Shown: in pieces, positions 3,672-52,815 of the stretch
Position numbering within the stretch: position 1 is the stretch's first letter
How the letters are laid out: each line of letters begins with the position of its first letter
From: Candidatus Shapirobacteria bacterium
Lineage (GTDB): Bacteria; Patescibacteriota; Microgenomatia; UBA12405; UBA6130
Assembly (NCBI GenBank): GCA_027039485.1
Contig: JALWDZ010000005.1
Span: 1 to 54,146, forward strand
Reading direction: 5' to 3'
Length of the DNA stretch: 54,146 nucleotides
Notes under the pieces: generated by a model
Database searches by the model: none
Told to the model about the DNA's origin: nothing
What the model saw: the letters and a program-made list of their open reading frames with translations, nothing else
Program-made: the position numbers and the translations under genes

Positions 3672-3986
3672 CTAAATTCCAAATTCCCTGCCCCGACTCC
3701 GCCATCCGGCGGACGTCGGGGCAAACCCTAAATCCTAATGACCTAAATCCTAAACAATGACCAAATTACCAAATGACCAAATGACCAAAACCTTGTCATC
3801 CTGAACGAAGCCGAAGGTGGATTTATTCCACCGAAGTGGGGGGCTTCGTCGCTTCACTCCTCAGGATAACGAAATACCGAGCTCCAAGTTCCAAGTTCCG
3901 AGCTCCATTTTTCACTTCAACTTCTTTTCCACTTTGCACTTTACATTTTAATTTTTCCTAGCTCCTAGCTCTTAGTTCCTAGTTCC
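3672..3986. repeat. Composite intergenic repeat island A
   Basis: Nested hairpin tgccccgac-tccgccatccggcgga-c-gtcggggca (3689-3723); CCTAAAT/CCAAATGA array (3723-3791); gtcatcctga...tcaggataac palindrome (3795-3870); CC(A/G)AG(T/C)T heptamers; pyrimidine-rich ttcactt tract; TCCTAG(C/T) heptamers. Confidence 0.9.
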
Positions 3987-3999
3987 GCTATAATGAGAC

Positions 4000-4539
4000 A
4001 TGAAGAAATTCTGTTTGGCGGGCGGGGTTATTCTTTTGCTTTTCATTTTTTTCTTTGCTAAAAATAAACTAAGGAGGCCGGCTATGCCCGAAGGAACAAT
4101 TGTCGTAACTAGTCCGGCATTTGCCAACGGGGCTTTTATCCCCCGCCGCTATACCTGCCAAGGCGAGGATATTAACCCTCCTCTCCATTGGGAAAATATT
4201 CCCGAAAATGCCCAATCTTTAGCCCTTATCGTCGACGATCCCGATGCGCCGGCCGGCACCTGGACCCACTGGCTAGTTTGGAATATCGACCCTAAAACCG
4301 ATGGCATTCCCGCCAATAGCCTGCCGCCGGGCGTTAATTTGGGCAAAAACGATTTCCAAAAATTGGCCTACGGTGGTCCTTGCCCTCCCAGCGGCACCCA
4401 CCGCTATTTTTTCCGCCTCTTTGCCCTGGATGCCCGCCTTAATTTGCCCAATGGCAGTTCCCGGGCTGATTTGGAAAAAGTCATTGCCGGCCACATTTTA
4501 GCCCAGGGTGCCCTCATAGGACGCTACCAAAAAGAATAA
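4000..4539 (+). CDS. YbhB/YbcL family PEBP (Raf kinase inhibitor-like) protein with N-terminal membrane anchor
   Basis: DDPDAP, WTHWLVWNI, YGGPCPPSGTHRYFFRLFALD motifs. Confidence 0.92.
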   Translation: MKKFCLAGGVILLLFIFFFAKNKLRRPAMPEGTIVVTSPAFANGAFIPRRYTCQGEDINPPLHWENIPENAQSLALIVDDPDAPAGTWTHWLVWNIDPKTDGIPANSLPPGVNLGKNDFQKLAYGGPCPPSGTHRYFFRLFALDARLNLPNGSSRADLEKVIAGHILAQGALIGRYQKE

Positions 4540-5061
4540 ATGAAACTTAACCGCCGCCTATTAACGCTTGTCTTTTCGGGCGCCGTTTTCTTTGGTTTTT
4601 TAACCAGCTTTTTCCTCCAATTCCAGCGGTCCCTGCCAGCCCAGTCGCCCCAACGCTACCAAGCTCAAGTAGCCTTTGTCATTGACGGCGATACCATTGT
4701 TCTCGCCAACGGCCAACATCTTCGCTACTTAGGTATTGACGCCCCCGAAGACACCCGCCACCACAATTGTTTTGGCCACCAGGCCACTTTAGCCAACCGC
4801 CGCTTGGTTAACCACCAGCAAATCACCATCCAAACAGACCAAGAAAAATATGATCCCTACGGCCGGCTGCTGGCTTATGTTTGGCGGGGCAATATTTTTG
4901 TCAATGATTACCTGGCCCGCCAGGGTTACGCTCGTTTGGAGCTCATTCCGCCCAATTTAAAATATGCCCGCGAACTAACCCAGGCCGTCCAAGAAGCGCG
5001 CCAAGAACGCCGCGGCCTCTGGGGCCACTGTTCTACCAACTATCGACATCATCATCAATAG
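4540..5061 (+). CDS. Membrane-anchored thermonuclease (SNase family)
   Basis: VIDGDTI, RYLGIDAPE, DPYGRLLAYVW, A...RRGLW motifs; N-terminal TM helix. Confidence 0.92.
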   Translation: MKLNRRLLTLVFSGAVFFGFLTSFFLQFQRSLPAQSPQRYQAQVAFVIDGDTIVLANGQHLRYLGIDAPEDTRHHNCFGHQATLANRRLVNHQQITIQTDQEKYDPYGRLLAYVWRGNIFVNDYLARQGYARLELIPPNLKYARELTQAVQEARQERRGLWGHCSTNYRHHHQ

Positions 5062-6841
5062 CCAGAAGATGGGGTGGAATTTCGGCCAAAAATTGTGACG
5101 GCCCACCGGCTTGGCGGCGGCCAAAGCGAAACCGGCGCCGGGCATAACTCAGGTAAAGGCGTTCCTTAGCCCGAGTAATGCCAACATAACAGAGACGGCG
5201 CTCTTCTTCCAGTTTTTCCGGATCTCCTTGACTCCGGCTATCAGGAAAAATGCCGCTTTCCAGGCCGGTCAAAAAGACGGCCCGAAATTCTAGCCCCTTG
5301 CTGGCGTGGATAGTCATCAGCCGGACCGCCCCCTGGCTCGAAAAATCGTCCCCGGCTTCGCCTTGGACCAAAGCAGCGTTATTTAAAAAATCGCCTAGTT
5401 GGGGATACTGCTGGCTGACATTGAAAAGCTCTTCAATATTTTGCCGCCGGCGGTGGTTTTCTGGCGTCTCCCGCCGCAACTTCTCCAAATAGCCGCTAGC
5501 CGGCACAATAGCCTCCAGCAATTCCCCGGTAGTTTTAGTCCAGGGAGCATGGTCGGCTACAAATTGGCGCACCCTTTCCTGGCGGCGGATTCCCATATTT
5601 TCCCGAATCCGCTCCCAAGCCAAAGTGTCATCAGGCTGGTACATCACCCGTAAAAGCGCCAAAATATCTTTCACCTCGGCCCGATTGTAAAAGCCAACGC
5701 CACCAACCAAAATGTAGGGAATTTGGCGGCGAAAGAAAATTTCTTCAAAGATACGTGACTGGGCGTTAGTGCGGTAAAGGACGGCCATCTCGTTAAAATT
5801 CCAGCCCTGGTCACCAAGCCAATCAATTTGGTCGGCCACAAATTTAGCTTCTTCTATTTCCGTCGCTGCCGGATAGAGGACAATTTTTTCGCCCGGCCCT
5901 CGTTGGGACCGGAGATGGAGGACCGGATGGCGACGGTTATGGGCAATAACCGCATCGGCAGCTGCTAAAATATTGGCCGTGGACCGGTAGTTTTCTTCCA
6001 AATTCACCGTAGCCATCTCGGGAAAATCGCGCCGTAAAGAAAGCAGGTTATGGTAATCCGCCCCTCGCCAGCCATAGATTGCCTGGGAAGCATCGCCAAC
6101 CACGGTTAAATTTTGCCCCCGGGCCAACAACTTCGTTAACTGGTATTGGCTTTTATTGGTATCTTGATACTCATCGATCAGGAGATAGCGGTAGCGGCGG
6201 CGGTATTTTTCTAAAACCGGAGGATAATTTTGCCACAGCTGGACCGTCTTAAAGAGAAGGTCGGCAAAATCCAATGCTTTCTGCTGGGTTAGAGCCTTTT
6301 GGTAGGCCTGGTAAATCTCCCCTACCTGGCGCTGGTAGCTATTTTCGGCTGTCGCCAGAAACTCAGCCGCATCCCAAAGGTTATTTTTCAGCCGGCTAAT
6401 CTTGGCCCGCAATTTAGCGGCCGGCCACTCTTTCTCATCCCGGTGGAATTTTTTCAAAATTTTTTGGAGAAGCCGCTTTTGGTCATTCTCGTCATAAATA
6501 ACAAAGTTAGGGTCAACGCCTATCTTAGCTCCATCCTGGCGCAAGACTTGGACAGCAAAAGAGTGGAAGGTGCCGGCAAAAATGCCCCGGCCAGTCATTT
6601 TTATCTGTAACCTTCCCAATAGCTGCCGCAACCGCTGGCGCATTTCTCCAGCCGCTTTGTTGGTAAAAGTTAACAACAAAATATTTTCCGGGGCCACATT
6701 TTTCTCGGCAATTAACCAAGCCGCTCGGTAAGTTAAAACCCGCGTCTTGCCACTGCCGGCGCCAGCCAAGACCAAAAGCTGGCGGCCGTCATAAGTCACT
6801 GCTTTCCGTTGGGCTGGATTCAAATCCTGCCAAAAATCCAT
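5033..6841 (-). CDS. pcrA: ATP-dependent DNA helicase PcrA/UvrD
   Basis: LNPAQ, AGAGSGKT, TFTNKAA, DEYQDTN, MTIHASKGLEF, EERRLCYVGITRA. Confidence 0.9.
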   Translation of the reverse strand: MDFWQDLNPAQRKAVTYDGRQLLVLAGAGSGKTRVLTYRAAWLIAEKNVAPENILLLTFTNKAAGEMRQRLRQLLGRLQIKMTGRGIFAGTFHSFAVQVLRQDGAKIGVDPNFVIYDENDQKRLLQKILKKFHRDEKEWPAAKLRAKISRLKNNLWDAAEFLATAENSYQRQVGEIYQAYQKALTQQKALDFADLLFKTVQLWQNYPPVLEKYRRRYRYLLIDEYQDTNKSQYQLTKLLARGQNLTVVGDASQAIYGWRGADYHNLLSLRRDFPEMATVNLEENYRSTANILAAADAVIAHNRRHPVLHLRSQRGPGEKIVLYPAATEIEEAKFVADQIDWLGDQGWNFNEMAVLYRTNAQSRIFEEIFFRRQIPYILVGGVGFYNRAEVKDILALLRVMYQPDDTLAWERIRENMGIRRQERVRQFVADHAPWTKTTGELLEAIVPASGYLEKLRRETPENHRRRQNIEELFNVSQQYPQLGDFLNNAALVQGEAGDDFSSQGAVRLMTIHASKGLEFRAVFLTGLESGIFPDSRSQGDPEKLEEERRLCYVGITRAKERLYLSYARRRFRFGRRQAGGPSQFLAEIPPHLLAIDDDVDSW

Positions 6842-8856
6842 TAAAGCTTGTTGAGATAATAAATCTTATTCTTCCCTGCGCGAAAAACTACTTTGCCCCA
6901 ATCTTGAAAACGGGTTTCATCTAAATTGGGATAATGGTCGCGCTCGCGGCTGCCAATAACCACATAACGGACATAATATTTCTTGAGAAGATAACGGGCC
7001 AAAACTTTGTCTTTGCCCTGATAGATCAGCGCCACCTCTTTCTGGCGTCGGGCGGGAATCTCATAACCGCCGCGCCAAAGCCATTCGTGAACCAGCCAGC
7101 CTTCAACCGTTGGCAGGCCGGTGTAAGCCGAAAACCGGTCATCATGAGTATAACTTTGGCCAGCTGCTTCCAAGATCACCGGTTGGCCGCGAAGATGGTT
7201 AAGCCAGAGATAAAGCCGATAATCGGCGGGCATCTCTTGGCGAAACCAGCGGCGGCCATCCAGGCCTTGATAGCGTTTAATCGCCAATCGGCCATAATAG
7301 CCACGGACAGCAAAAACAATAAAGAGCAATTGGGCAGCTGCTCCCAAACCCATCACCACCAGAGCGAGGCGGGGCCACCAGCTGCTCGACTTGATAGCTA
7401 ACTGGCGGAAACGGGCTAAGACATAGCCACTGGCCAAAGCATAGAGAACAAAAGCCTGGTAGACCAATTTAAACATCGTGTTGGCCCGGTGGTAGCCGGC
7501 CGCATAGATATCGCGAACATAGATAACTTCCGGCAAAAAAACTAAAAATGTCGCCCAGACGGTCAGCGCCAAAATAAACCGGTCCATTTTCAGCCGTTTT
7601 TTCTGGCGGGCGAACATAATCCAATAGAAAGCAGCCACCAGCCAAAAGAATCCCCACAAAATGAGCAATTGCCACCAAAGGGAATGGGTCGGAGTAAAGG
7701 CAACCCCCTGGGTAATAGAATGGAAAGAAAGATAAAAGGGCAAGGCAGTTAGCAAAGCCGCTAACAAGGTTAGGCTGCCAAATTGCAACCAGCGGCGCCA
7801 GTTGTCTTTCCAATAAAAGCCGGTCACCAAAGCCAGGAGGCCGCCATAAATGGGAAAATCCCAGGCATTGGTGGTGAACATGACGCCCAAAAGCCAGCCC
7901 AAAAAGGCGGCCATCTCCCAGCGGAAACGGCGCCGAACCAGGATGCCCAAGCTAAAAAGAAAAAGCAAAACCAACGGCAAATCGTTAAGATGGGCATGGA
8001 GATCGGCAACAATAAAGGAATAACTGGGAAACTCATGAATCGTCCGGTCGTGGGGATTAGGCGGATAATAGCCAATGAAACGGGTAGCGTTAGGATACCA
8101 ATAATGAGCCGGGCCATCTTTGAGAACAAAAACAATGGTGTGCAAATTACCACCCAAAGTAAAGAGCAAAACTCCGACCAAAGCCGCCGCCCATAGAAAA
8201 CGCTTTTTCTCCAGTTGGCTAACCCGGTCGCTGAGCCAGCTTAAGACAAGCACTAAGCCGCCGCTAAAAGCAAGGGCAAAAATTGTGGCAATAAGAAGAT
8301 TGTAGGTAATGAATGAAGGAAGCCCGCTAAAAAGAGTTAAAACGGCGGCTTGGAAATGGCCGAAATAATAATAATTGATGCTCTGGCCGGCAAACCAGGG
8401 GTCAGCCGCCGGCAGCCAATGGCTCCGCAAAATAGAGTTGAGGAAGCCAAAATCCATGAATTTTTCTAGACCGTCGATATTTGGCTGGAAACCCCGCAAC
8501 AGGCTCCAGCCAACTAGAGCCAGGCCAAAAATGAGCTCGCTGGCAATTATAAATTCTATTTCACTTCTAGTTAGCCGGGGGCGGTCTCGCCAGATCAGCC
8601 AAATGCTAAACACTAAAAGTAACAAAACCATTAAGGAAATTGTTGCTAGGGAAAAAGGGAGAAGATGAAAGGTGGCCAGCCAGAAAACAGCATAACTAAT
8701 AATGGCTGTGGTGAGAATTTTGGCAAAAATCCAGCCAAAAGCCCAAAAGCGCCGCGGGGCTAATTTGCGCCAAAAAGAAAACGAAAGGCTACCCCAAAAA
8801 AGCAAAAATAACCACCAATGAAAGATAGTTCTCAAATTACCAAAAATAAGTTTCAT
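6841..8856 (-). CDS. DUF2298/YYY-type polytopic membrane protein, probable GT-C-fold glycosyltransferase
   Basis: EKFMDFGFLNS, DPWFAG..INYYYFGH, IHEFPSYSF..DLHAH, NTMFKL, GLPTVEGW..HE motifs and many TM helices. Start placed at the ATGA overlap. Confidence 0.75.
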   Translation of the reverse strand: MKLIFGNLRTIFHWWLFLLFWGSLSFSFWRKLAPRRFWAFGWIFAKILTTAIISYAVFWLATFHLLPFSLATISLMVLLLLVFSIWLIWRDRPRLTRSEIEFIIASELIFGLALVGWSLLRGFQPNIDGLEKFMDFGFLNSILRSHWLPAADPWFAGQSINYYYFGHFQAAVLTLFSGLPSFITYNLLIATIFALAFSGGLVLVLSWLSDRVSQLEKKRFLWAAALVGVLLFTLGGNLHTIVFVLKDGPAHYWYPNATRFIGYYPPNPHDRTIHEFPSYSFIVADLHAHLNDLPLVLLFLFSLGILVRRRFRWEMAAFLGWLLGVMFTTNAWDFPIYGGLLALVTGFYWKDNWRRWLQFGSLTLLAALLTALPFYLSFHSITQGVAFTPTHSLWWQLLILWGFFWLVAAFYWIMFARQKKRLKMDRFILALTVWATFLVFLPEVIYVRDIYAAGYHRANTMFKLVYQAFVLYALASGYVLARFRQLAIKSSSWWPRLALVVMGLGAAAQLLFIVFAVRGYYGRLAIKRYQGLDGRRWFRQEMPADYRLYLWLNHLRGQPVILEAAGQSYTHDDRFSAYTGLPTVEGWLVHEWLWRGGYEIPARRQKEVALIYQGKDKVLARYLLKKYYVRYVVIGSRERDHYPNLDETRFQDWGKVVFRAGKNKIYYLNKL

Positions 8857-9338
8857 TTTTGTCGCGGCCAAAAGTAATAAATTAGAAACAAGATTGTTCC
8901 CAAAATTAAACCGCCAAAAATATCAACCGGATAGTGAAGGCCAAAATACACCCGGCCATAGTTGACTAAAAAAATAACCGGCAAAAGAAGCAAAAGCCAC
9001 CACCAGCGGACCAGAAAAGCAAAACCAAGGACCAGAGCCGAACGAAGGCCGTGGCCAGAAGGGAAACTGCCCCACGAATAATGGCCCAACCAGGGCGGCG
9101 GCAGGCGGTGGAAGCGGTAAAAGGGGCGAGGCCAAGGAGAAAAATGCTTGCCCAAAATTTCAACTACTTCGGAAATTATCAACAGGCCAAAGAAAGCTAA
9201 AAAAGTTTTGGGCCGGCGGAGAAAAAAATAAGTTGCCAGCGCCAAAATTAAAATCCACAAAACCCAATGGGAAAAGAAAAACAAAACGGGAATAAAATGG
9301 CTGCTGGCTGGTTGCCAAAATAAAATTGCCTTTATCAT
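8853..9338 (-). CDS. PAP2-family membrane phosphatase
   Basis: K..(WP)RP, SFPSGH and GRVYFGLHYPVD catalytic motifs. Confidence 0.9.
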   Translation of the reverse strand: MIKAILFWQPASSHFIPVLFFFSHWVLWILILALATYFFLRRPKTFLAFFGLLIISEVVEILGKHFSPWPRPFYRFHRLPPPWLGHYSWGSFPSGHGLRSALVLGFAFLVRWWWLLLLLPVIFLVNYGRVYFGLHYPVDIFGGLILGTILFLIYYFWPRQK

Positions 9339-10300: not shown

Positions 10301-10316
10301 TTTGGCTCAGTATAGC

Positions 10317-13029: not shown

Positions 13030-13079
13030 AGCCTATTTTAACGGCTGGAAAAGAAAAACTAAACCTTCTAAAATAGGGC

Positions 13080-17399: not shown

Positions 17400-17406
17400 T
17401 TCATTT

Positions 17407-22489: not shown

Positions 22490-23036
22490 ACCAAATCCCA
22501 AATTACAAACCTGCCTGCGCAAAGACATCCCAAGCACCAAATCACAAGCAAATCCTAAATCCTAATGACCCAAATCCTAAACAAATCCAAAATTCAAATG
22601 ATCAAATGACAAAAACTCAAGACGCTCCCTCTTGTCATCCCGCCCTTTCATAAGAAAGGGCGGGATCTAGTGAGCGGAGCGAGCGCATGAAAGTTTAAGT
22701 TATAAAATTGCGCTTCGCTAGATTTTTACCCCGACTCTGCCAGCTGGTGGAACGTCCTGGGGCTTCGCTTCGCTCAGAATGACGCGGTTTAAAAATGTTT
22801 TGAGCATTTGGATTTTGAACATTTGAACATTGTTTAGGATTTAGGATTTTGGTAATTAGGATTTGTTTGCCACTTGGAATTTGTGATTTTGTGCTTTTTG
22901 ACCTAGCTCCTCCAACCTAGTTCCTAGTTCCATTCTTTAACTTTCCACTTTAACTTCTTTTTCACCTTACACTTTTCATTTTTCATTTTTCCCGAGGTGT
23001 AGGTAGGTTTCCACCGCCCAGGTGGAAAATTCGGGA
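22490..23036. repeat. Composite intergenic repeat island B (long nested imperfect inverted repeat)
   Basis: Left arm ~22530-22616 is roughly complementary to right arm ~22797-22896. The core holds hairpin atcccgccctttc-ataa-gaaagggcgggat (22637-22666), gagcggagcgagcg and ccccgac...gggg. CCTAG heptamers, a pyrimidine tract and hairpin 22990-23036 follow. Confidence 0.9.
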
Positions 23037-32668: not shown

Positions 32669-33553
32669 CTAGAGCTGGGGCAGACTCGAAAGTAACTGCC
32701 GATAGCGCTTCAAGATTAGCTGGCTCTGGTCGCGGGGATGGAAAAAGGCAAAGCGGGGACCAACCAATTCCCGCTGGTGATGGCGAGCCATGTAAAAGTA
32801 CTGTAGCTGATAAGCTAACTTTTCCAACAAACTCGGCGGCCGCGGCGGTGGTGGCGGCGGGCAGGGATGTCTTTGGCAAAAGGTTTTCAGCCAGGTAGCC
32901 AAAAATCGCCCCAGCCAGTCACGGTTGGCAGCCACCAGCCGGGCGTACCAGTCACCCTCATCATAAACAACTTTCATCTGGAAAATTTCCATGGCCACAA
33001 AAAGGTTTTGCTTGGCCGGGGGCAAACGGAGGGCATCGCCGGCTAACCAGACGTTGGGGCAAAGCCGATCGGCGATCCGCCGGCCCCGGTGGAACGGCAA
33101 GCCCGCCGGCCGCCGCGGCTGGCGCTGCCAGCGCCGCCACACCTCCCACCAAAGTCGGGTCTGCCAAAGCCGGCCGGGGGCGGTAATTAACAAAAGATCC
33201 AAATCATCGCCCGGATAAGCATTTTCGCTAGCCACACTGCCGGTTACTGCCAAAAGCTTAATCCCCGGCAGCCCCCGGCCGGCGGGAAAAAACTGCTTCA
33301 CCCGGGCCAGTTTGCGCCGGGCCCAAAAAAGTCCCCGCTGGCGGGACCGGCAAGAACAAGAGGGCAAAAAATAATAGCCAGCTTGCTCCCGGAGCCAGCC
33401 GCGGCGGCCGGCCCGGGCAATAGCTTTTTTCACTGTTGGCCAAGAATACACTTGGGACGACAAAAGGCGGTGGTAAATTTCTTCCTCCCGAAGGGGAAAA
33501 CGGAAAAGGTTGCTATAAGCGACGGTAGTCAAAACAGCCCTAACGGCGCTCAT
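32669..33553 (-). CDS. Hypothetical protein with Pol-beta-type nucleotidyltransferase motif
   Basis: AVTGSVA....DDLDLLLI (hGS...DxD); C-terminal AFFHPRD. Confidence 0.6.
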   Translation of the reverse strand: MSAVRAVLTTVAYSNLFRFPLREEEIYHRLLSSQVYSWPTVKKAIARAGRRGWLREQAGYYFLPSCSCRSRQRGLFWARRKLARVKQFFPAGRGLPGIKLLAVTGSVASENAYPGDDLDLLLITAPGRLWQTRLWWEVWRRWQRQPRRPAGLPFHRGRRIADRLCPNVWLAGDALRLPPAKQNLFVAMEIFQMKVVYDEGDWYARLVAANRDWLGRFLATWLKTFCQRHPCPPPPPPRPPSLLEKLAYQLQYFYMARHHQRELVGPRFAFFHPRDQSQLILKRYRQLLSSLPQL

Positions 33554-35135: not shown

Positions 35136-35560
35136 GGAACTAGGAATAATAAGCACCAAATTCCAAATTACAAATAACAAACAAATCCTAAATCCTAATG
35201 ACCCAAATCCTAAACAATAACCAAATTACCAAATGACCAAAACTCAAGACGCCCCTTCTTGTCATCCCGCCCTTTCATAAGAAAGGGCGGGGTCTAGCGA
35301 GCGGAGCGAACGCATGAAAAAGGAAACCAGAGGATCAGGATATCAGGGAAAGAATTCGGAATATCAGGATATCAGGTTAACTTTTTTCTCTGTTATCCTG
35401 ATCTCTTATTCTCTTTCCCTGATTGCTTGATTCCCTGATATTCTACAATTTAATCCTTTTTTCTCTTTACTAAGTTCTAAATTCCGAGTTCTAAGTTCTG
35501 AATATTTGGGGTTTAGGATTTTGGTATTGTTTGTGATTTGGTGCTTGGGATTTGGAATTT
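35136..35560. repeat. Composite intergenic repeat island C
   Basis: Outer arms aagcaccaaat.../...atttggtgctt; ~140-nt block shared with island B (35182-35319 vs 22549-22692); ATCAGG/CCTGAT array; AGTTCT heptamers. Confidence 0.9.
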
Positions 35561-36488: not shown

Positions 36489-36753
36489 TGGAAGTTAGAA
36501 TTCAGAACTTAGAACTTAGAGCTCAGAGCTTGGAACTTGGAGTTCAGAACTTAGAACTCAGTAAGAAAAAGATTAAATTATAAAAATATCAGGAAAAGTT
36601 AACCTGATCCCCTGGTTTCCTTTTCCATGCGCTCGCTCCGCTCGCTAGATCCTTCACTTCACCTGGCGGCTCGTTCAGGATGACTTCCTAAGATACTAAG
36701 ATCTAAGTTCCAAGTTCCAATAACCTAGTTCCTAGCTCCTAGTTCCTAGTTCC
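36489..36753. repeat. Composite intergenic repeat island D
   Basis: AGAACTT heptamers; inverted copy of the island C core; tcgttcaggatgac is the reverse complement of gtcatcctgaacga in island A; CCTAG heptamers. Confidence 0.9.
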
Positions 36754-36786
36754 ATTCGTTGTTTGTTGTTTGTTGGCAGTTGGCAA

Positions 36787-40726: not shown

Positions 40727-40728
40727 AG

Positions 40729-41064
40729 CTAACCCCAAATTTTTGCCATCTGGAGAAGTTTTTGCCACTCGTTTTGAAGCTCGGAAAAGCTAGCTGCCAA
40801 AGCGGCCTTTCGGGTCAGAATAAGAATTTTTGCCGGTCGAAAATGAGACAGAGAAAGGCGGGCAATTTCAGCTAGGCGGCGGCGGAGGCGATTGCGGTCA
40901 ACGGCCCGGGGAGCAATCTTCCGGGAAACAACGATGCCAATTTTTTTCTCCTCGCCAGCTAATACTAGAAGGTGAAAAAAGTGGCCACGGACAAATTGTC
41001 CCTTTTCCTGCAAAAGTTGAAAATCTTTCTTCCGGCGAAGACGGTATTCTCGCCCTAAGGCCAC
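40729..41064 (-). CDS. rnpA: Ribonuclease P protein component
   Basis: RLRRKKDF, GIVVSRKI..AVDRNRLRR; follows rpmH. Confidence 0.92.
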   Translation of the reverse strand: MALGREYRLRRKKDFQLLQEKGQFVRGHFFHLLVLAGEEKKIGIVVSRKIAPRAVDRNRLRRRLAEIARLSLSHFRPAKILILTRKAALAASFSELQNEWQKLLQMAKIWG

Positions 41065-41216
41065 TAGCGCGCTGAGCTAACGGTTAACCTTTTCCTCCCT
41101 TTTTGGCGGCGGCGTTGCAAAACTTTTTGACCACCGGCTGTTTTCATCCGCTGGCGAAAACCATGTTTGCGGGCCCGGCGGCGCTTTTTAGGCTGATAGG
41201 TGCGCTTGGTGCTCAT
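41064..41216 (-). CDS. rpmH: 50S ribosomal protein L34 (not in the supplied ORF track, 50 aa)
   Basis: Manual translation [50 protein letters not shown]. Confidence 0.96.
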
Positions 41217-41241
41217 GAGAGCATTATATCATGAAACATAA

Positions 41242-42588: not shown

Positions 42589-42589
42589 T

Positions 42590-43441: not shown

Positions 43442-43479
43442 GACATATTATACCCTAAATTAGGCAAATTCTATTCAAA

Positions 43480-44190: not shown

Positions 44191-44192
44191 AT

Positions 44193-45284
44193 TTACTTTA
44201 AGAAACTCAGCGGGTTCAAGCGGACTCGGCCGCGGCGGATTTCAAAGTGGAGATGAGTGCCGGTCGAATGGCCGGTTGAACCCATCCTACCAATTGGCTG
44301 GCCCTGGGCTACCTTTTGGCCGGGATGGACATAAATCCGAGTCATGTGGGCGTAAAGAGTCTTATAGCCATTGCCGTGGTCAATAATTACATGGTGGCCA
44401 TAGCCGTAACGGCCATAAATTACCCGCTCAACGGTTCCGGCAGCCGCGGCCAGGATATTGGGGGCAGCCGGATTGGCAATGTCAATCGCCCGGTGGTACC
44501 AAGAATAGCCCTGGGTAACAACTCCCGAAGTAGGCCAAATAAATTGGCTGGCGGTTTTCTTGCCAGCAACTACCGGCCAGCGCCGGGCCGCATAGTACGA
44601 TGGCGGCGGCTTAGCGCTGGGCATAATCCCGTCGGGAATAATAATAACCTGGCCAACTTTAAGGGCAAAAGTTTCGTCGTTGGCAAAGGTGTTAAAAGGA
44701 AAGTCGACAATTTTTTGGGGGTCGGTGCGGTATTTTTTCGCCAACGAATAAACAGTTTCTCCCCGGCGGACCCGGTGGACGATGCCGGTTACCGGCGGAA
44801 TCTTTAACCGCTGGCCGGCGCGGATATCTTTGGGTGAGCGGAGATTGTTGGCCCAAATAATCGTATCCAGGGAAACATCAAATTTTTTGGCAATTGCTGA
44901 AAGCGTTTCCCCTTTCTTGACAATATATTCAACAATATCGCCCCGGACATTTGTCTGCCCAGTTTGGGGAACATAAAGGCTGGTTTGGGCCAAAGCCGCC
45001 TGGGTATCAAGATAATCGCTGGGCAGGTTAGTCTCTGAGCTAAGGGCATCCTCCAAATAAGGCGAAAGATAAATTGCCAAAAAAACAAAAACTGTCAGAA
45101 AAAAATGGGTTGCCGGCTGGGCAAAGCGCCCCCGTTGGCGGTAAAGCAAACGCACCAAAAAAGTCTTAACCCCTTCCAGGGAATGTAAAACAAGCAGAAT
45201 CCAGTTGGCTAAAATAACATGGTAAGTGTCTTTAAAAGCATACCATTCTTCCCGGTAATTTTTCAGCTTGGGCAAAAGCTTCAT
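44193..45284 (-). CDS. LysM x2 plus M23 peptidase
   Basis: YIVKKGETLSAIA, HRAIDIA, YAHM, STGTHLHFEIR. Confidence 0.9.
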   Translation of the reverse strand: MKLLPKLKNYREEWYAFKDTYHVILANWILLVLHSLEGVKTFLVRLLYRQRGRFAQPATHFFLTVFVFLAIYLSPYLEDALSSETNLPSDYLDTQAALAQTSLYVPQTGQTNVRGDIVEYIVKKGETLSAIAKKFDVSLDTIIWANNLRSPKDIRAGQRLKIPPVTGIVHRVRRGETVYSLAKKYRTDPQKIVDFPFNTFANDETFALKVGQVIIIPDGIMPSAKPPPSYYAARRWPVVAGKKTASQFIWPTSGVVTQGYSWYHRAIDIANPAAPNILAAAAGTVERVIYGRYGYGHHVIIDHGNGYKTLYAHMTRIYVHPGQKVAQGQPIGRMGSTGHSTGTHLHFEIRRGRVRLNPLSFLK

Positions 45285-45772
45285 TTTTCAAGCGGCAAGT
45301 GGCGGTAAAGCCAGGCTGAGATTTTATCAAGGGCATTTTTAGGCGGGTCTATTTTCACCAGCCGGGCGGCCAAAATTTTTTCAATTTCTTTCTCTTGCGG
45401 ATCAATAATCAGTTGAAGAGCTGGCAAATCAGCTGTTTTGGGAAGAATAACAGCTAGGGTATGCCCCCATCTCTTTTCTATCCAGTAATGACCTAGCCAC
45501 TCCCAAGCGATTACTTGCTCCCGGTCGGGCACCTGCACCCCCTTAGTAGTAAATTTGTAAGTAACCTTTGCCGGGGCAACCGTAGTTAAAACATAATAGA
45601 GAAAGACCAGAGACAGCCCGGCAATGATCAAAAGCCATTCTTGGGCAAAAAAGAGAATCAAAACCACTAGGGCAGTAATCATTAAAATTGTGCTCCAGGT
45701 TTCCCGGGAATAACGGCGAAAAGGCCGGGCTGGCGCTTGCCACTCAAGCAAGACATTTTTTTTCTTCATCAT
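45281..45772 (-). CDS. Hypothetical membrane protein
   Basis: LLEWQAPARPF, two TM helices; start trimmed to MMKKK because the longer ORF overlaps the 16S trailer. Confidence 0.65.
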   Translation of the reverse strand: MMKKKNVLLEWQAPARPFRRYSRETWSTILMITALVVLILFFAQEWLLIIAGLSLVFLYYVLTTVAPAKVTYKFTTKGVQVPDREQVIAWEWLGHYWIEKRWGHTLAVILPKTADLPALQLIIDPQEKEIEKILAARLVKIDPPKNALDKISAWLYRHLPLEK

Positions 45773-45809
45773 CTTATGATACTCCAACCGGCCCCAAAAA
45801 AACCAGTCT

Positions 45810-45836
45810 GTTAGTTCGGCTTGCAGCAGGAGAAGC
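45810..45836 (-). other. 3' arm of the 16S precursor processing stem
   Basis: Complementary to 47559-47585 (gcttctcctgct(g/a)caa...), mostly with G-U-compatible differences. Confidence 0.8.
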
Positions 45837-45846
45837 AAAAATCCTA

Positions 45847-47544
<1,698 letters not shown>

Positions 47545-47558
47545 AAAAAAACGAACTG

Positions 47559-47654
47559 GCTTCTCCTGCTACAACCCAAACCAACTTGAACCTTTTGTCA
47601 AGGTGCTAATATTCTGAAGCAATTCTATTATACCTTGAAGAAAAGAAAAATCAA
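47559..47654 (-). promoter_or_regulatory. 16S promoter and leader
   Basis: TTGATT-16-TATAAT (47654-47627), boxA-like gcaccttgacaa (47595-47606), 5' processing arm 47559-47585. Confidence 0.65.
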
Positions 47655-48577
47655 GCCGTCTTTTGTAAGAAGCTTTCCGCCTCGAGGGCGGCCATGCAGC
47701 CGGTGCCAACTGCGGTGGCTAATTGTTGGTAATGGGCATCGGCGACATCACCGGCGGCAAAAACTCCCGGGCGCGAGGTAAGCACTTTTTCCCGGGTAAC
47801 AATATAGCCGTGATCGTCCAAATCTAACTGGCCCTGGACAAACTGGGTGTTAGGCTGGTGGCCAATCGCCAGAAAAAGACCATCTAAAGGCAGTTCTGAC
47901 CGCTCGCCAGTTTTGGTATCCTCCAAAACCACGCCGGTTAATTTTTCCTTACCCTTTAGCTGGACAACAATTTTGTTCCAGAGAATCTTAATGTTGGGCT
48001 GTTTTTGGACTAATTTTTGGTTGGCTAGGGCCGCTCGCAACTGGTCGCGGCGATGGATTATATACACCTGGCGGGCTGCTTTGGCTAAAACCAGGGCATC
48101 GACCATGGCCGTGTCGCCACCCCCAACTACGGCGGCTACTTTTTGGCGGTAAAAAAAGGCATCGCAAGTAGCACAAGTGGAAACTCCATGGCCAAGGAGT
48201 TCTTTTTCCCGCGGCAAGCCTAAAAACCGGGGCGAGCCGCCGCTGGCAATAATTAAAGCCTCAGTTAGCAACTCTTTATCCTTCAGGAACACCCGAAAAG
48301 GGCGTTGGTGGAGATCAGTTTTAACCACCTCGCCTCCTAAAAAGCGGGCGCCAAACTTTTCTGCCTGCTGGCGAAAGCGCTGGGCCAGCTCCGGCCCCTG
48401 AATACCTTCTGGAAAGCCAGGATAGTTCTCGACCAAGGTGGTCAAAACCGGCTGGCCACCGGGACTTAAACCTTCAATCACCAGCGGGTCAAACCCCGAC
48501 CGACCGGCGTAAATTGCCGCTGTCAACCCGGCCGGGCCGGCGCCAATGATGATCACCTTTTCGACTTTTTCAGCCAT
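47651..48577 (-). CDS. trxB: Thioredoxin reductase
   Basis: GAGPAG, CATCD, GGGDTA, FAAGDV. Confidence 0.95.
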   Translation of the reverse strand: MAEKVEKVIIIGAGPAGLTAAIYAGRSGFDPLVIEGLSPGGQPVLTTLVENYPGFPEGIQGPELAQRFRQQAEKFGARFLGGEVVKTDLHQRPFRVFLKDKELLTEALIIASGGSPRFLGLPREKELLGHGVSTCATCDAFFYRQKVAAVVGGGDTAMVDALVLAKAARQVYIIHRRDQLRAALANQKLVQKQPNIKILWNKIVVQLKGKEKLTGVVLEDTKTGERSELPLDGLFLAIGHQPNTQFVQGQLDLDDHGYIVTREKVLTSRPGVFAAGDVADAHYQQLATAVGTGCMAALEAESFLQKTA

Positions 48578-49808
48578 GATTGAGAGTCGCCAAGAACTCG
48601 GCGTTGTTTTTGGTTTTGGCTAACTTTTGTAAAAAGGCCTCGGTGCGCTCATCCTTGTTTAGCAAATCCACCATCCGCCGCATCCGGACAATTTGAGGAT
48701 AAATTTTCGGGTCAAAAAGTAATTCCTCTTTCCGGGTTCCTGATCGCTGGATGTCAATCGCCGGGAAAATGCGCCGTTCTGCTAAATGGCGATCGAGATG
48801 AATCTCCATATTGCCGGTCCCCTTAAACTCCTCATAGATAAGATCGTCCATCTTACTGCCGGTATCAATCAGGGTAGTGCCAATAATTGTCAGCGAGCCA
48901 CCATTTTCAATGTTCCGGGCCGCGCCAAAAAAGCGCTTGGCTGGGTAAAGGGCCGCCGGATCAAAGCCGCCACTCAGGGTCCGCCCCGAAGAAGGCATCG
49001 ACAGGTTGTAAGCCCGCGCCAACCGGGTAATGGAATCCAAAAGAATAAAGACATCTTCGCCCATTTCCACCAGGCGCTTGGCCCGCTCGATGGCAATTTC
49101 CGCCGCCCGGGTCTGGTATTCCGGCGGTTCGTCAAAATTAGAGGCGATAACTTCACCTTTGACGCTGCGGATAATATCAGTCACCTCTTCGGGCCGTTCG
49201 CCAATCAAAACAGCCATCAGGTGCACTTTAGGGTAATTTTTGGCCACCCCATAGGCAATGTCTTTCATCAGCCAGGTCTTTCCTGCCTTGGGTGGGGAAA
49301 CAATCAGGCCCCGCTGGCCAAAACCAATCGGAGCAATCAAGTCAACCATCCGGGCGGCCAACAACTTTTGTTCCGTTTCCAATTTAATTTGCGGCTGGGG
49401 GAAAATTGGCGTCAACTGGCTAAACCAAGGGCGCGCCTTAACTTTTTCTACCGGCTGGCCGTTTATCTTTTCAATTTTCAAAATACTCCGGTAACGCTCG
49501 TTATCTTTTGGCGCCCGCACTTGGCCGCCGACCAAATCGCCTTCCCGCAATTGGAAGCGGCGAATCTGGGAAGCGGAAATATAAACATCACCCGGCGAGG
49601 GGGTAAACTTAGGCCGCAAAAAGCCATGGCCATCATTGGCAATATCTAAAACGCCTTCAACAAACTCTGTTGGCAAATGGCTGTCGGGAATGATCCGGCC
49701 GTCAACTTCAACCAGCTTTTCTGGCTCTTCGTTGGCCGGGGCTTTTTTAACTGGGGCCGACTTTTGGGGCAAATCGTCGGCGGTGATAAAGGTAGCATTA
49801 TCGCTCAT
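48570..49808 (-). CDS. rho: Transcription termination factor Rho
   Basis: [60 protein letters not shown]. Confidence 0.97.
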
Positions 49809-49896
49809 GCGGATTCTCCTTAAAAATTAACGGGTTTAAGACAACACCGAGGGCATGATCACCAATATTTAACCACACCCTCGGCTGGCTGTCAAA

Positions 49897-50304
49897 TGGA
49901 ACTTGGAACTCGGTATTCCGTCACCCCGAGGGGCGGATGCATGAAAAAGGAAACCGGGGCATCAGGTTAACTCTCTTTTTTTTCTTTCTCTTTCTCTTTT
50001 TTTCTTTCCCTGTTATTCTGATCTCTGATTCTCTTTCCCTGATTACCTGATTTTTCCTGATATTCTATATTATTTAATCTTCTTCTCTTTACTAAGTTCT
50101 GAGCTCCGAGCTCCAAGCTCTGAATTCCGAGTTCTAAGCTCTAAGTTCTAAGTTCTGAATATCTAGGATTTGGGTCATTAGAATTTAGAATTTGCTTGAC
50201 CTAGTTCCTAGCTCCTCCAACCTAGCTCCATTTCAACTTTTCACTTTCCACTTCTTTTTCACTTTGCACTTTACACTTTTAATTTTTCCTAGTCCCTAAT
50301 TCCA
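49897..50304. repeat. Composite intergenic repeat island E
   Basis: gcatgaaaaaggaaacc identical to island C; CT-rich expansion; CCTGAT array; AG(T/C)TC heptamers; inverted CCTAAAT module; CCTAG heptamers and pyrimidine tract. Confidence 0.9.
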
Positions 50305-50305
50305 A

Positions 50306-52291
50306 TCACGGTGTCGGGCTGACGGTGATTTGGGGCGCTGCTTCCCGGGAAAGCTGAATTGGGGTCACCACCGGGCTGGGCACCGGGGTTGGCAACGAAA
50401 GCTGTTTCGGCTTAGCTGCTTTGCTCGTTTCCTTCGTCTTTTTCCCCAATAACTTTTGCCATTCTTCAAGTTCCTTCTTAGCTTTTTGGTAATCCGGGCT
50501 GTTGACGTCAACCAAAGATACTGCCTGCTTTAACCGTTGAACCGCCGCCGCCAGCTTTTTCTGCTGCTTCAATGACCAGGCCCAATTGTACCAGCCATTA
50601 GCCCAATCGGGTTTCAAATTAACTGCCGCCTGAAAAATCCGCTCCGCTTGGTCATATTGGCCCAAACTATAATAAATACCTCCCAATCTCAGCCGCAGGC
50701 GGGGATCCAAGGGATTAAGGCTAATTGTTTGTTGGTAGGCGGCTATGGCCCATTGGTCAGCCCCCTTTGCCAAATTAATGAGCTGCCGGTAAGTTTGGGC
50801 TAAATTTTGCCAGGCTAAAAAGCTGCGCGGCTCTAGCGCCACTCCGGCCTTAGCCTCAGCGATAGCCTCCTGGACCAATGCCGTTAAAGTTTGTTTATCT
50901 TTATCGTTAAGATCTTTCCCCTGTCGGACTAAAGCCGCTACCAAAGCTAGGTCTGTCTGGCTCCGCCCCAACCGATAGGCTAAAACAAACCGGTTATAGC
51001 GGACAGCTTGCCGCTGAAATCGATAAGCCGCGGTGCCATCATTGCGATTAATAGCCGCCAAAGACTTAACAAACCAATATTCGGCAATTAAGCCTCGCCC
51101 CAAGAAGTAACCCAAGCCAGCGACTAGCAGCACCGTTCCTAAGGCAATACCCCGCCGGGCCCATTCCGGCCAATTCGCCTTTATCTCTCTTTCGGAGACT
51201 AACAAACTAGCTAAGAAAACTAACAGCCAAAGCAAAACCGGCCCCATCGGCAATGCCAGCTCTACGACTATTAAGAAAAGCAGGATCCAGCTAAGAGGGC
51301 TACCCTTTTGCTGCCGCCAAAGCCGCCAGACGGCGATCAGGAACCAGGCCCAGAAAACTAGACCCAAAAGGCCAATTTCCGTCCAAATATGGAACCAAAG
51401 GTTTGCCGGTTGGGAAAAAAGCAAATTCCAATTCTTGCTCTGATTGAATTGTAACGGCCGGTAGGCAGCAAAAGCATTGCTAAAATTAGCCGGACCAACT
51501 CCAAAAAGCGGCTTATTTTTCAAACTTTCCACAGCAATTGCCCAGGACGGCTGAAAACCCAAGAGTTGCGGCCGGTGTTGGTAAAGCTGGTAAGCCTCGA
51601 CGCCCCCGCCAACAAGAAAAACAAAAGCCAACCCTAAGGCAATTAGGTTAGTCTTTTGCCAAAGGCGGTGCTCATTTTGGCGGCCAACGCTAACTAATTT
51701 TTGGAGCCAGAAAAGAAAAAGGGCGGCTAGAAAAACTAAAGTCATCAGGGCCGAACCCAAAGGTGACCAAAAAGGCCCGCCGATTACAAAAGGATGGGCT
51801 GCACCCAAAACATGAAGGGGATAGAACTTTGGCGGCAAAACAAAAAGAGTTATTGTCACTAGCGCCAGCAAAAGGCCGGCGGCGCTTAAAACGGCCATTA
51901 CTTTTTGCAGCTGGCGGCGCCAACCAGTTTGCCAGAAAAGAAAGACAAAGATAAGGCTCAAGGCAATAACCCACCAGGGGTTCACCTCCCAAAGACTGCG
52001 GACCCGCACCCCGCTGCCGGCCAAAAACCAACTTATTAAACCCCAAATTACCAAAAGTAAAAGAGGAGTTAGGTTACGAGGAAGAAAAACCTTCCTTTCC
52101 CCCTCTAAAAATCCCAATCCCCAAACCAAAAGGCCCAAGAGGTCAATTGCCATTAAGAAAACTAATTTTCCGCCCAAAATAGGCTGCCGCAACCAGGGCC
52201 AGAAGAAGAGGGGCAAAAGGAAAAGCGCCAATCCCATTAAGCCAAAAAGAATTTGGTCGGCCAGCAATTTTTTCTCTTTTATTAATTCCAT
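50306..52291 (-). CDS. O-antigen-ligase-like membrane protein with C-terminal TPR domain
   Basis: About 12 TM helices, PLFGVGPANF, N..FHIWTEIGLLG, TPR repeats, PT-rich tail. Confidence 0.75.
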   Translation of the reverse strand: MELIKEKKLLADQILFGLMGLALFLLPLFFWPWLRQPILGGKLVFLMAIDLLGLLVWGLGFLEGERKVFLPRNLTPLLLLVIWGLISWFLAGSGVRVRSLWEVNPWWVIALSLIFVFLFWQTGWRRQLQKVMAVLSAAGLLLALVTITLFVLPPKFYPLHVLGAAHPFVIGGPFWSPLGSALMTLVFLAALFLFWLQKLVSVGRQNEHRLWQKTNLIALGLAFVFLVGGGVEAYQLYQHRPQLLGFQPSWAIAVESLKNKPLFGVGPANFSNAFAAYRPLQFNQSKNWNLLFSQPANLWFHIWTEIGLLGLVFWAWFLIAVWRLWRQQKGSPLSWILLFLIVVELALPMGPVLLWLLVFLASLLVSEREIKANWPEWARRGIALGTVLLVAGLGYFLGRGLIAEYWFVKSLAAINRNDGTAAYRFQRQAVRYNRFVLAYRLGRSQTDLALVAALVRQGKDLNDKDKQTLTALVQEAIAEAKAGVALEPRSFLAWQNLAQTYRQLINLAKGADQWAIAAYQQTISLNPLDPRLRLRLGGIYYSLGQYDQAERIFQAAVNLKPDWANGWYNWAWSLKQQKKLAAAVQRLKQAVSLVDVNSPDYQKAKKELEEWQKLLGKKTKETSKAAKPKQLSLPTPVPSPVVTPIQLSREAAPQITVSPTP

Positions 52292-52357
52292 TGCTTCTTT
52301 CAGTGTAGAACGCTTTTTTATTCCCGTCAAGGGCCACCATGTTAAAATAGGAAACTA

Positions 52358-52428
52358 GGCCCGGTGGCGAAGTGGCAACGCAGCGGTCTGCAAAACCGCG
52401 ACCGCGGGTTCGAATCCCGCCCGGGCCT
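52358..52428 (+). tRNA. tRNA-Cys(GCA), CCA not encoded
   Basis: Acceptor ggcccgg/ccgggcc plus U73, anticodon arm gcggt-ctgcaaa-accgc, T arm gcggg-ttcgaat-cccgc. Confidence 0.95.
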
Positions 52429-52433
52429 CATAT

Positions 52434-52815
52434 TGGAACTCGGTATTCGGAGCTTAGAACTCAGAACTTAGAACTTAGTAAGAAGAAGATTAAATAATAA
52501 TGTAGAATATCAGGAAAAATCAGGTAATCAGGGAAAGAGGATCAGAAACCAAAAGAACAGGGAAAGTTAACCTGATACCCTGGTTCCCTTTCTAAGGGTC
52601 CTTCTCCTCATCATTAGATAACCTAGCTCCATTTCATTCGGGATGACACATTGCTAAGCTCCGAGTTCCAAGCTCTAAGCTCCAATAACCTAGTTCCTAG
52701 CTCCTAGTTCCTAGTTCCCTTTTTCCCTTTCCACTTAAACTTTTCACTTTCTGAGTTCCGAGTTCCAAATTCCGAGTTCCAAATTCCGAGTTCCGAGTTC
52801 TAAGTTCTGAGCTCC
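52434..52815. repeat. Composite intergenic repeat island F
   Basis: AGAACTT heptamers on the left and their complements on the right; 52503-52546 is a 43/44 inverted match to 50024-50067; CCTAG heptamers. Confidence 0.9.

Follow-up and report, generated by a model that had tools for sequence, protein, structure and literature searches.

The stretch of DNA analysed here (the window; 54,146 nucleotides) is the whole of contig C5 in the genome assembly of a Candidatus Shapirobacteria bacterium (G000), which comprises 695,276 bases in 27 contigs and is rated 97% complete with 0.09% contamination. Six islands of tandem arrays and palindromes (islands 1-6, at 3672-3986, 22490-23036, 35136-35560, 36489-36753, 49897-50304 and 52434-52815) are located in the window, all of them between open reading frames (ORFs) or RNA genes. 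The genes that flank them are unrelated housekeeping genes, namely those for FemAB-like, PEBP and solute-binding proteins, a 5'-3' exonuclease, a glycosyltransferase, Rho, an O-antigen-ligase/TPR protein, transketolase and tRNA-Cys. In a preliminary description of this DNA, the islands were interpreted as nested non-autonomous foldback elements built from one kit of modules, perhaps the shells of four-helix-bundle gene cassettes, and that interpretation proved largely right. What is new is that the island family also populates the rRNA genes of this organism and shares small hairpins with its rRNA helix tips; a seventh copy, missed in the preliminary description, lies at 47191-47363 inside the 16S rRNA gene.

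Comparison of the six islands and the 16S insert by blastn-short returned 75 inter-island high-scoring segment pairs (HSPs) at E ≤ 1e-3. The best HSP between islands 2 and 3 covers 155 nt at 87.7% identity and that between islands 5 and 6 covers 134 nt at 86.6% in inverted orientation; further HSPs link islands 3 and 5 (123 nt at 83.7%), islands 1 and 3 (60 nt at 95%) and islands 4 and 6 (38 nt at 100%). With the six islands alone, the top HSP scored 159 bits and 69 inter-island HSPs reached at least 30 bits. By contrast, 50 dinucleotide-preserving shuffles gave a top HSP of 28.2 bits and none of at least 30 bits, and 50 shuffles that kept every 7-mer block gave a top HSP of 32.2 bits and a mean of 0.12 HSPs of at least 30 bits. 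Because the similarity between islands exceeds that of both sets of shuffled controls, it amounts to more than shared low complexity, and the six gaps share modules well above chance. The single shared kit that had been proposed is thus borne out, and the refuting outcome envisaged for it, similarity no better than that of composition-matched shuffles, did not materialise, the shuffles falling far below the real set. The arrays named at that time were likewise recovered: Tandem Repeats Finder (TRF) placed AAATCCT, AATGACCA, TCCTAGC/CCTAGTT, AGTTCTA-type, TTTTTCA/TCCACTT and CCTGAT-type arrays where they had been reported, their units run head to tail with no unique spacers, and the named palindromes are present in the island sequences. 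The nested inverted pairs are real as well, in that islands 2, 3 and 4 each fold end to end as one long nested hairpin (RNA fold z scores of -9.5, -9.6 and -4.6, respectively); island 6 gave a weaker score of -2.9.

Elsewhere in G000, the island sequences match 114 places on 25 of the 27 contigs. Using gene calls from a crude longest-ORF rule, which makes all gap counts given here those of a rough gene set, repeats were found in 119 of 253 gaps of at least 80 nt (31.3 kb, or 4.5% of G000), and islands fill 107 of the 201 gaps of at least 150 nt. On the same rough gene set, the claim that every large gap of the window is built from the kit holds nearly, the exception being a gap of ~170 nt near 41065-41241 that carries no module. 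Ten reference modules (A, B, C, D, E, H, K, P, T and Z) were taken from the window and placed on G000, giving 105 islands with 111 copies of A, 59 of D, 55 of C, 25 of E, 24 of B, 23 of K, 20 of T, 15 of Z and 13 each of P and H. Recurring orders are A..inverted A; inverted D-A..inverted A-D; and inverted E-inverted D-B-C-inverted A. The A-type foldbacks are either empty or hold one of the cores H-Z-K, T-Z-K or H-Z-B-C, and the D and E arrays are found outside the A arms as inverted pairs. In a second architecture, a C-type foldback surrounds the ATCAGG/CCTGAT module B.

The layering of these elements is regular. Eight full A-type copies align over 320-360 nt. In 15 simple foldbacks, the outer layers are an AAATTCC/AAGCACC array and then a small GC hairpin, and the inner layers are AAATCCT heptamers, CAAATGAC octamers and a purine-rich loop, after which all layers follow inverted. 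At >20 unrelated loci, and in rRNA helices, multi-layer copies of 250-360 nt share one order of at least six layers. Loops of the H hairpin are mostly of a 4-nt GCAA/GTAA/GTGA/ATAA type, on one strand or the other. These observations support the view that the islands are ORF-less foldback elements, assembled from a shared kit in nested layers. A 20-nt A-arm core has exact matches in six metagenome contigs (L146-L151) that are otherwise unrelated to G000, and the arm type is therefore not confined to the genus; a 21-nt A-arm core had no exact match among viral contigs, and the K-core pattern had none among metagenome contigs. Between the genes of the same six contigs lie AT-rich foldbacks of similar form, built from related units (GAAATTC, GGGATTT).

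The islands of the window differ in how much of this architecture they retain. Island 1 (3672-3986) is a half-element that starts with an outer AAATTCC-type array and the P hairpin (3689-3721), continues through an A arm (3722-3791; AAATCCT heptamers and then CAAATGAC octamers) and the T palindrome (3795-3868; GTCATCC..GGATAAC with inner hairpins), and ends with AGYTCC heptamers (~3879-3907), the E pyrimidine tract (3908-3958) and a D array of TCCTAGY units (3956-3986). Island 2 (22490-23036) is a full nested foldback that aligns with seven other full copies in G000. Its first half comprises an outer array, an A arm (22546-22616), an H hairpin with GTCATCC (22630-22664) and Z (22665-22692); the K module (22700-22785) ends in CTCAGAATGAC, and the second half consists of an inverted A arm (22795-22898), D (22902-22931), E (22932-22993) and a GC hairpin (about 22994-23036). 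Island 3 (35136-35560) is an A foldback with arms at about 35155-35243 and, inverted, at 35504-35560. These enclose an H-Z-B-C core made up of H (about 35258-35291), Z (35292-35319), the ATCAGG/CCTGAT foldback B (about 35320-35465) and a C array (35466-35503).

Island 4 (36489-36753) represents the C-type foldback. Its first part contains an inverted C array (36491-36561), inverted B (about 36562-36625) and inverted Z (36626-36652), and its second part a remnant ending in GGATGAC (about 36653-36687), C units (36688-36722) and a D array (36724-36753); a GTTGTTT array follows at 36758-36775. Island 5 (49897-50304) is again a half-element, in which short inverted C units (49897-49917), a GC hairpin, a Z tail and B (about 49956-50090) are succeeded by a C array (50091-50160), an inverted short A (50161-50198), D (50199-50225), E (50227-50290) and a D-like end. 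Island 6 (52434-52815) directly follows tRNA-Cys (52358-52429) and begins with inverted C (52434-52481), inverted B (about 52482-52600), a D unit (about 52620-52636) and a GGGATGAC remnant, which are followed by C (52656-52688), D (52689-52718), an E-like tract (52715-52748) and a long GAGTTCC array (52749-52816). A TATAAT is present at 3989-3994, between the last array of island 1 and the ATG at 4000 (6 nt upstream of that ATG), and another at about 52835-52840, after the last array of island 6 and about 3 nt upstream of an ATG; islands 1 and 6 may adjoin promoters of near-leaderless genes.

Repeats of this kind invite the suspicion that the islands are assembly or binning artefacts in which repeat-rich reads from several organisms were joined into chimeras. 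In the likely source sample, public short-read contigs do stop inside each island checked (islands 3-6), and 13 of the 54 contig ends of G000 lie within 250 nt of a module. The G000 contigs also fall into two GC classes (about 0.42-0.47 and 0.49-0.54) between which module density differs three-fold, with 0.76 modules per kb on the 17 GC-richer contigs and 0.26 per kb on the other 10. Against this, junctions of modules with unique flanks are carried by short-read contigs at G000's own depth (X1 records 1, 2, 4, 6-8; X3 record 22), the contamination estimate is 0.09%, and the kit recurs in rRNA and at the corresponding gaps of two independently assembled genomes of the same genus, G001 and G002. 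An artefact of this type is consequently regarded as very improbable. The split into GC classes could correspond to compartments of one genome or to a mixed bin, despite the low contamination rating.

The 16S rRNA gene of the window (45848-47544, minus strand) is the only 16S in the assembly and is unlinked from the 23S and 5S genes, which lie on another contig behind a tRNA. Its insert (47191-47363, minus strand) is a 173-nt A-type foldback that takes the place of an apical loop (helix at Rfam model position about 188) and matches island 2 over 57 nt at 93% identity. The minimum free energy structure of the insert is a hairpin of about 70 pairs (z -10.6), and complementary GC-rich sequence on either side (at about 47364-47375 and 47181-47190) lengthens its stem. 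The junction between insert and 16S is also covered by a contig assembled independently from a different sample of the same study (X3, 47220-47443). With no other 16S gene in the assembly, the ribosome must be able to work with the insert in place. A second extra hairpin in the 16S (46200-46262, minus strand) consists of an H-type stem (CCCCGCCCTTT..AAAGGGCGGGG) closed by a loop of about 40 nt; in four runs, contigs from other organisms lack 76-92 nt at this point (joints 46203-46206 to 46283-46296). At the tip of a helix in the 16S 5'-domain, a P hairpin (47458-47477, minus strand) is 100% identical over 20 nt to island copies at C13:14081-14100 and C7:11412-11431. In the Rfam alignment, the 16S gene is without most of one helix, 33 model positions being replaced by 2.

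The 23S rRNA gene, on contig C8, is 4097 nt long compared with 2925 for the model and contains four insertions. Kit modules make up insertion 1 (182 nt, model position about 165), insertion 3 (170 nt, about 1891) and insertion 4 (about 315 nt, near 2185, a position extrapolated beyond the alignment). Insertion 2 (307 nt, model position about 1404; G000:C8 about 33035-33341) carries a GIY-YIG ORF in a CCCCGCCCTTTC/GAAAGGGCGGGG stem that is the same sequence as the H hairpin of the islands. Insertions 1-3 replace apical loops in the alignments. The 28-nt H hairpin of the 23S has island copies of 100% identity on contigs C13 and C1 and of 93% identity in islands 2 and 3. The GC hairpins of the islands are thus the organism's own rRNA helix tips. 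The 5S gene (G000:C8:35534-35682) is 149 nt long against a 120-position model. An extra hairpin of about 30 nt is common to G000 and G001, with G002 and G004 lacking it, and a P-type hairpin is present in the gene as well.

The relatives of G000 have genomes of 0.5-1.1 Mb, and comparison with five of them was used to follow the turnover of these copies. G001 and G002 belong to the same genus as G000, and G003-G005 to the same family. None of the four relatives with the region assembled (G002-G005) has the 16S insert; the 16S of G001 is not assembled and falls outside this comparison. A relative in a run from another study also has an empty site. In the 23S gene, insertions 2-4 are present in G001 and empty in G002, G003 and G004, and a partial 23S contig of G005 has insertion 4 empty. 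The GIY-YIG-bearing insertion 2 matches at about 92% between G000 and G001 and is absent in G002 and G004. Furthermore, G001 has A-type foldbacks with the same terminal hairpins at four other 23S helices. Insertion 4 has a central GTCATCC..GAATGAC core in G000 and none in G001, meaning that one module can be present or absent inside another. At orthologous intergenic gaps, where the flanking genes are 75-88% identical, the island stays and its modules differ, as observed at island 5 (against G001) and, by match positions, at islands 2, 3/4 and 6. The comparison of orthologous gaps that the preliminary description had called for therefore reveals turnover of island content within the genus, with filled and empty sites between close relatives that are cleanest in the rRNA genes. 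G001 (L064) and G004 (L065) have in addition an insertion of roughly 0.9-1 kb in the 3' part of the 23S (G000 query about 3940) with a long ORF-like stretch, of which there is none in G000 or G002; it is probably an endonuclease-bearing intron. Ribosomal protein L30 was not found in G000 and was found in 13 of 14 control genomes.

Classical intervening sequences (IVSs) are removed from precursor rRNA by RNase III without ligation, giving fragmented rRNA. The copies in G000 are like bacterial rRNA IVSs in their location at rRNA helix tips, the long stem formed by inverted flanks, their sporadic distribution among relatives and the optional PF05635 ORF. They differ in that about 100 copies lie outside rRNA, mostly without an ORF, and in that the arms are tandem arrays of 7-8-nt units. 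Both a helix-tip site and a long flank-paired stem are found in the copy at 47191-47363, and a helix-tip site in the 23S copies as well; the six islands are intergenic relatives of IVSs and not IVSs themselves. IVSs that encode a PF05635 "23S rRNA IVS protein" are reported for Leptospira and Coxiella (Warrier 2016, PMC4990558).

Insertions in rRNA genes of the Candidate Phyla Radiation (CPR) have been surveyed for their frequency (Tsurumaki et al. 2022, PMC9297842) and, more recently, in a set of 1,346 insertions of at least 100 bp (Tsurumaki et al. 2024, PMC11270868). As given in the main text of the latter, short insertions (<200-250 bp) that are neither intron-like nor ORF-bearing occupy the tops of stem-loops, and ORFs of the GIY-YIG and 23S_rRNA_IVP types are found in both 16S and 23S insertions. 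On that account the G000 inserts are similar, being short, ORF-less and placed at stem-loop tops, with GIY-YIG and PF05635 ORFs occurring in rRNA too. The survey compares rRNA genes only, and its main text does not contain the words repeat, hairpin or intergenic; copies in intergenic DNA throughout a genome and the array anatomy are not described in that main text. The literature within reach of the search, which takes in few subscription journals, yielded no account of PF05635 cassettes flanked by arrays or of intergenic copies of rRNA-insert repeats.

Three genes of the four-helix-bundle family PF05635 and five small GIY-YIG genes are present in G000. One of the PF05635 genes (G000:C16:61508-61798) lies between an A arm and an inverted A arm, so that a cassette with the same arms as the islands exists and its gene belongs to PF05635; the other two are flanked by inverted arrays of other units (AGCTGGTC-type and CCTAAGT). 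The kit copy enclosing an ORF that the preliminary description had wished to see sought is thus at hand. In the same way, its suggestion that the islands are empty shells of four-helix-bundle cassettes is supported for the AAATCCT/CAAATGAC arms, which enclose the C16 gene, and lacks support for the GTCATCC palindromes: enrichment of GTCATCC motifs next to PF05635 genes was not seen (13 of 95 loci compared with 16 of 95 control stretches), and the motifs flank none of the PF05635 or GIY-YIG genes of G000. A PF05635 foldback cassette is defined here, there being no curated family, by its inverted ~7-nt arrays, and such arrays are present in islands 2, 3, 4 and 6 and in the 16S copy. The start and first codons of the C16 gene lie within octamer-array-like sequence (..ACAATGACCAAATACCAAAA..; G000:C16:61459-61500), from which it follows that the upstream arm overlaps the coding start.

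The association of PF05635 genes with inverted arrays is not limited to G000. In G002 (L019/L052, C13), a 470-nt insertion in another 16S helix contains a PF05635 ORF between inverted CAACAAA/TTGTTGG arrays; this ORF has one in-frame TAA and may be decaying. PF05635 matches occur in 27 of 41 genomes of the order, with up to eight per genome, and at most of the 28 loci listed for the order a tandem array directly precedes the start and an inverted array directly follows the stop, the array unit differing from locus to locus. A cross-phylum scan with an 8-sequence alignment against 185,579 species genomes yielded 80 loci, of which 75 were scorable, from CPR groups, Chloroflexi, Nitrospira, Planctomycetes, cyanobacteria, Alphaproteobacteria, Bacteroidetes, Acidobacteria and one archaeon. 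With flanks of 150 nt each, an inverted flank match of at least 24 bits was found at 30 of the 75 loci compared with 1 of 136 control pairs of windows of the same geometry in the same loci. Period-7 arrays were present in at least one flank at 43/75 loci and 16/136 controls, and in both flanks at 14/75 loci and 0/136 controls. Inverted heptamer arrays are therefore a cross-phylum hallmark of PF05635 genes, and the heptamer flanks beside four-helix-bundle genes that the preliminary description had put forward are confirmed. To our knowledge, the only studied member of this large family is Avd, an accessory protein of diversity-generating retroelements. The PF05635 oligomer is a pentamer related to Avd, and PF05635 is not a known transposase.

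As regards possible mobilisers, the earlier statement that no transposase is present applies to the islands and not to the genome as a whole, in that G000 encodes elsewhere two RayT-like Y1 proteins with HUH motifs (best match NF047646, at 53.6 and 57.4 bits). Y1 genes were found in 8 of 10 relatives with at least two kit matches and in 12 of 30 others, a difference confounded by kinship. The candidates for trans-encoded spread are these two RayT-like HUH proteins, the five small GIY-YIG nucleases and the three PF05635 proteins, should the elements be mobilised in trans. Retro-mobility was rejected because a search of G000 with RVT_1 gave no reverse transcriptase match. Cargo genes of the PDDEXK_3/GxxExxY type were sought in G000 and none was found.

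Taken together, the data make it probable that the islands are accumulations of copies (whole, truncated or nested) that belong to one lineage-specific, ORF-less foldback family, and that this family is the same as that inserted in the rRNA genes. The islands would then be ORF-less derivatives of IVS-type foldback cassettes. Insertion, slippage of arrays, and recombination or gene conversion from copy to copy would account for gain and loss at the DNA level. A copy might persist since it folds back on itself, and the core helices of rRNA would stay intact. In transcripts, rRNA included, each copy could form a hairpin of its own, which would either stick out or be excised by RNase III, for which G000 has a gene. 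Stems built from arrays of short units would go on pairing despite slippage, a property that may explain the recurrence of arrays. Spread could proceed through nuclease-triggered repair from ectopic copies, through a hairpin-specific HUH enzyme or through plain ectopic recombination. As G000 has no rRNA genes besides those that bear inserts, the inserts must be harmless.

A number of observations weigh against this interpretation. The postulated family of nested non-autonomous foldbacks stands as far as ORF-less elements in nested layers from a shared kit are concerned, but no target-site duplication was seen at the 15 foldbacks or at filled and empty rRNA sites, and no clean insertion junction was found at the copies examined. 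The replacement of a whole helix tip, with site-specific small flanking hairpins, is as compatible with recombination as with transposition. Islands 1 and 5, being half-elements, lack a partner arm, and the order of modules within islands rests on the assembler's bridging across repeats. Among A-family copies, the own partner arm scored 26.9 compared with 33.3 for arms of other copies (1999 of 2000 permutations reached the observed mean, although extraction of arms in fixed windows may be at fault); given that own arms match no better than foreign arms, this gives no support for compensatory change. Arm mismatch types (G:T compared with A:C) gave no strand signal, the mismatches being too few and mostly transversions. 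Both RayT-like scores lie below the NCBIfam cut-off of 80 bits, and neither gene is flanked by modules, the nearest being >1 kb away. No RNA run was listed for 45000-53000 of the window, and the four runs compared are all DNA contigs. A degree of regularity towards genes leaves room for some function: modules B and C face gene starts in ratios of 18:6 and 36:15, respectively, and the E-D end of island 1, which adjoins a gene start, is kept in G001 and G002.

Some of these points would suit an origin with no strict mobility, in which arrays that arise by local slippage, together with hairpins copied from rRNA helices, are kept similar by ectopic recombination or gene conversion among hotspots. 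Besides the lack of target duplications and the replacement, as opposed to interruption, of helix tips, period-7 and period-8 arrays dominate the tandem repeats of G000 (306 and 123 of 877 TRF rows), hairpins are identical between rRNA and islands, and breakpoints of rearrangement between G000 and G001/G002 fall at islands. However, slippage alone is insufficient for 250-360-nt copies that keep the same order of at least six layers at >20 unrelated loci and in rRNA helices, and G001 has new copies with the same termini at distinct rRNA helices. Such an origin is accordingly judged quite unlikely.

The orientation of B and C and the retained end of island 1 bear equally on the proposal that the islands are cis-elements used by the host and maintained by selection, with the rRNA copies as true expansion segments. 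Variants of this proposal include RNase III or insulating hairpins, scaffolds upstream of promoters or at terminators, and arrays that bind a protein such as the PF05635 pentamer. Islands in more than half of the larger gaps (107/201) would agree with it, as would the bias of repeat-bearing gaps towards divergent gene pairs (32 divergent and 13 convergent, compared with 19 and 20 for gaps without repeats), the TATAAT that follows the last array of islands 1 and 6, the GNRA-like loops of H hairpins, which suggest shaping at the RNA level, and the location of rRNA copies in the only rRNA genes of G000. By contrast, modules D, E, A, K, T, Z and P follow no rule of orientation to genes (D 25 vs 30, E 10 vs 12), orthologous gaps of a same-genus genome hold different modules, and, since the rRNA copies are absent from close relatives, none of them is essential. 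There is moreover no match to an Rfam family and no support for covariation within the A family. We therefore consider selection for a host function unlikely. A promoter or terminator role was rejected as the principal explanation, most modules being without an orientation rule relative to neighbouring genes.

The features tested do not allow the foldback family to be filed as a repetitive extragenic palindromic (REP) element or bacterial interspersed mosaic element (BIME), a miniature inverted-repeat transposable element (MITE), an intron or a CRISPR array. For a REP-type unit (a palindrome of 20-40 nt with a conserved 5' tetranucleotide), hairpins H and P fit in size, with no conserved flanking tetranucleotide seen; because the elements consist mostly of tandem arrays and layered arms of 250-360 nt, they do not qualify as REP/BIME units. 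Inverted arms of the MITE kind are present, but without target-site duplication at the 15 foldbacks or the rRNA sites. No match to an already described REP or MITE family, which had been named as a ground for abandoning the foldback interpretation, was found in the Rfam and literature searches made. Group I and group II introns were dismissed in that no intron family reached gathering score in the window or the 23S locus, and a CRISPR array in that the units run head to tail with no spacers. At gathering score, Rfam matches in the whole window were limited to 16S and tRNA; sub-threshold matches on islands 2-4 at E ≤ 1 (miRNA-precursor-like and Flavobacterium-1) were rejected as generic hairpin resemblance.

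Mosaics of short modules without ORFs, varying in order and orientation, are well known from intergenic DNA: BIMEs and REPs in enterobacteria, Neisseria intergenic mosaic elements (NIMEs) and Correia elements in Neisseria, and BOX elements in pneumococcus. For REPs, a REP-associated tyrosine transposase (RAYT) acts in trans and its gene is typically flanked by its REPs. G000 is comparable to the BIME, NIME and BOX mosaics in that short modules are recombined in intergenic DNA and two RayT-like genes are present; it is unlike them in that the arms are tandem heptamer and octamer arrays and not single palindromic units, and in that copies reside inside rRNA genes. Foldback elements of Drosophila and other eukaryotes have long inverted termini of tandem short repeats in variable number and a central loop with or without genes, and they fold back strongly. 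The likeness to these is architectural only, as they belong to another domain of life and no related transposase is present. Rickettsia palindromic elements and organelle palindromic repeats are selfish hairpins of reduced genomes, tolerated inside genes, including RNA genes; their sequences are unrelated to those of G000 and have no array structure, and we know of no link between these elements and PF05635. Finally, short tandemly repeated repetitive (STRR) sequences are tandem heptamers in intergenic DNA of heterocystous cyanobacteria. Their units and host taxa differ from those of the G000 arrays. At two cyanobacterial PF05635 loci (in Calothrix and Chroococcidiopsis), heptamers are inverted on both sides of the gene, and from these two loci a link between STRR heptamers and PF05635 cassettes may be surmised.

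These comparisons raise a broader possibility, which is advanced only tentatively: PF05635 genes may mark a widespread, so far undescribed class of foldbacks with inverted arrays of ~7-nt units, the unit being lineage-specific, that occupies both rRNA genes and intergenic DNA. If so, ORF-less derivatives of this class would explain the short CPR rRNA insertions, the mosaic islands and, possibly, the STRR heptamers of cyanobacteria. The arrays would do the work, serving as an RNase III stem that frees the ORF from a host transcript or as a repeated binding site for a PF05635 oligomer, and the PF05635 protein would help the element to copy itself. The association of PF05635 with inverted heptamers across phyla is in any event a testable lead to the function of the family. 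For the class of CPR rRNA insertions that the latest survey left uncharacterised, the foldback interpretation would provide an identity, in this lineage at least, as copies of a genome-wide foldback repeat. About 4.5% of a 0.7-Mb, 97%-complete genome is moreover given over to such repeats, which are admitted even into its only rRNA genes, a situation that bears on the tolerance of selfish DNA in streamlined genomes and on the failure of 16S primers and short-read assembly.

The GIY-YIG genes of G000 have surroundings of their own. Two of them, G000:C20:10907-11122 and G000:C13:4588-4797 (L014, L015), each lie just upstream of a tRNA gene and are each preceded by a duplicate of the 5' part of that tRNA, as if inserted into or beside the tRNA gene with a partial copy of the target. 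At about 21650-21800 on contig C13 (L018), five tandem copies of a ~31-nt sequence follow a truncated-looking GIY-YIG gene, on both sides of which are GGCGTGATAAATCCGCC-type hairpin repeats that resemble the inner hairpin of module T.

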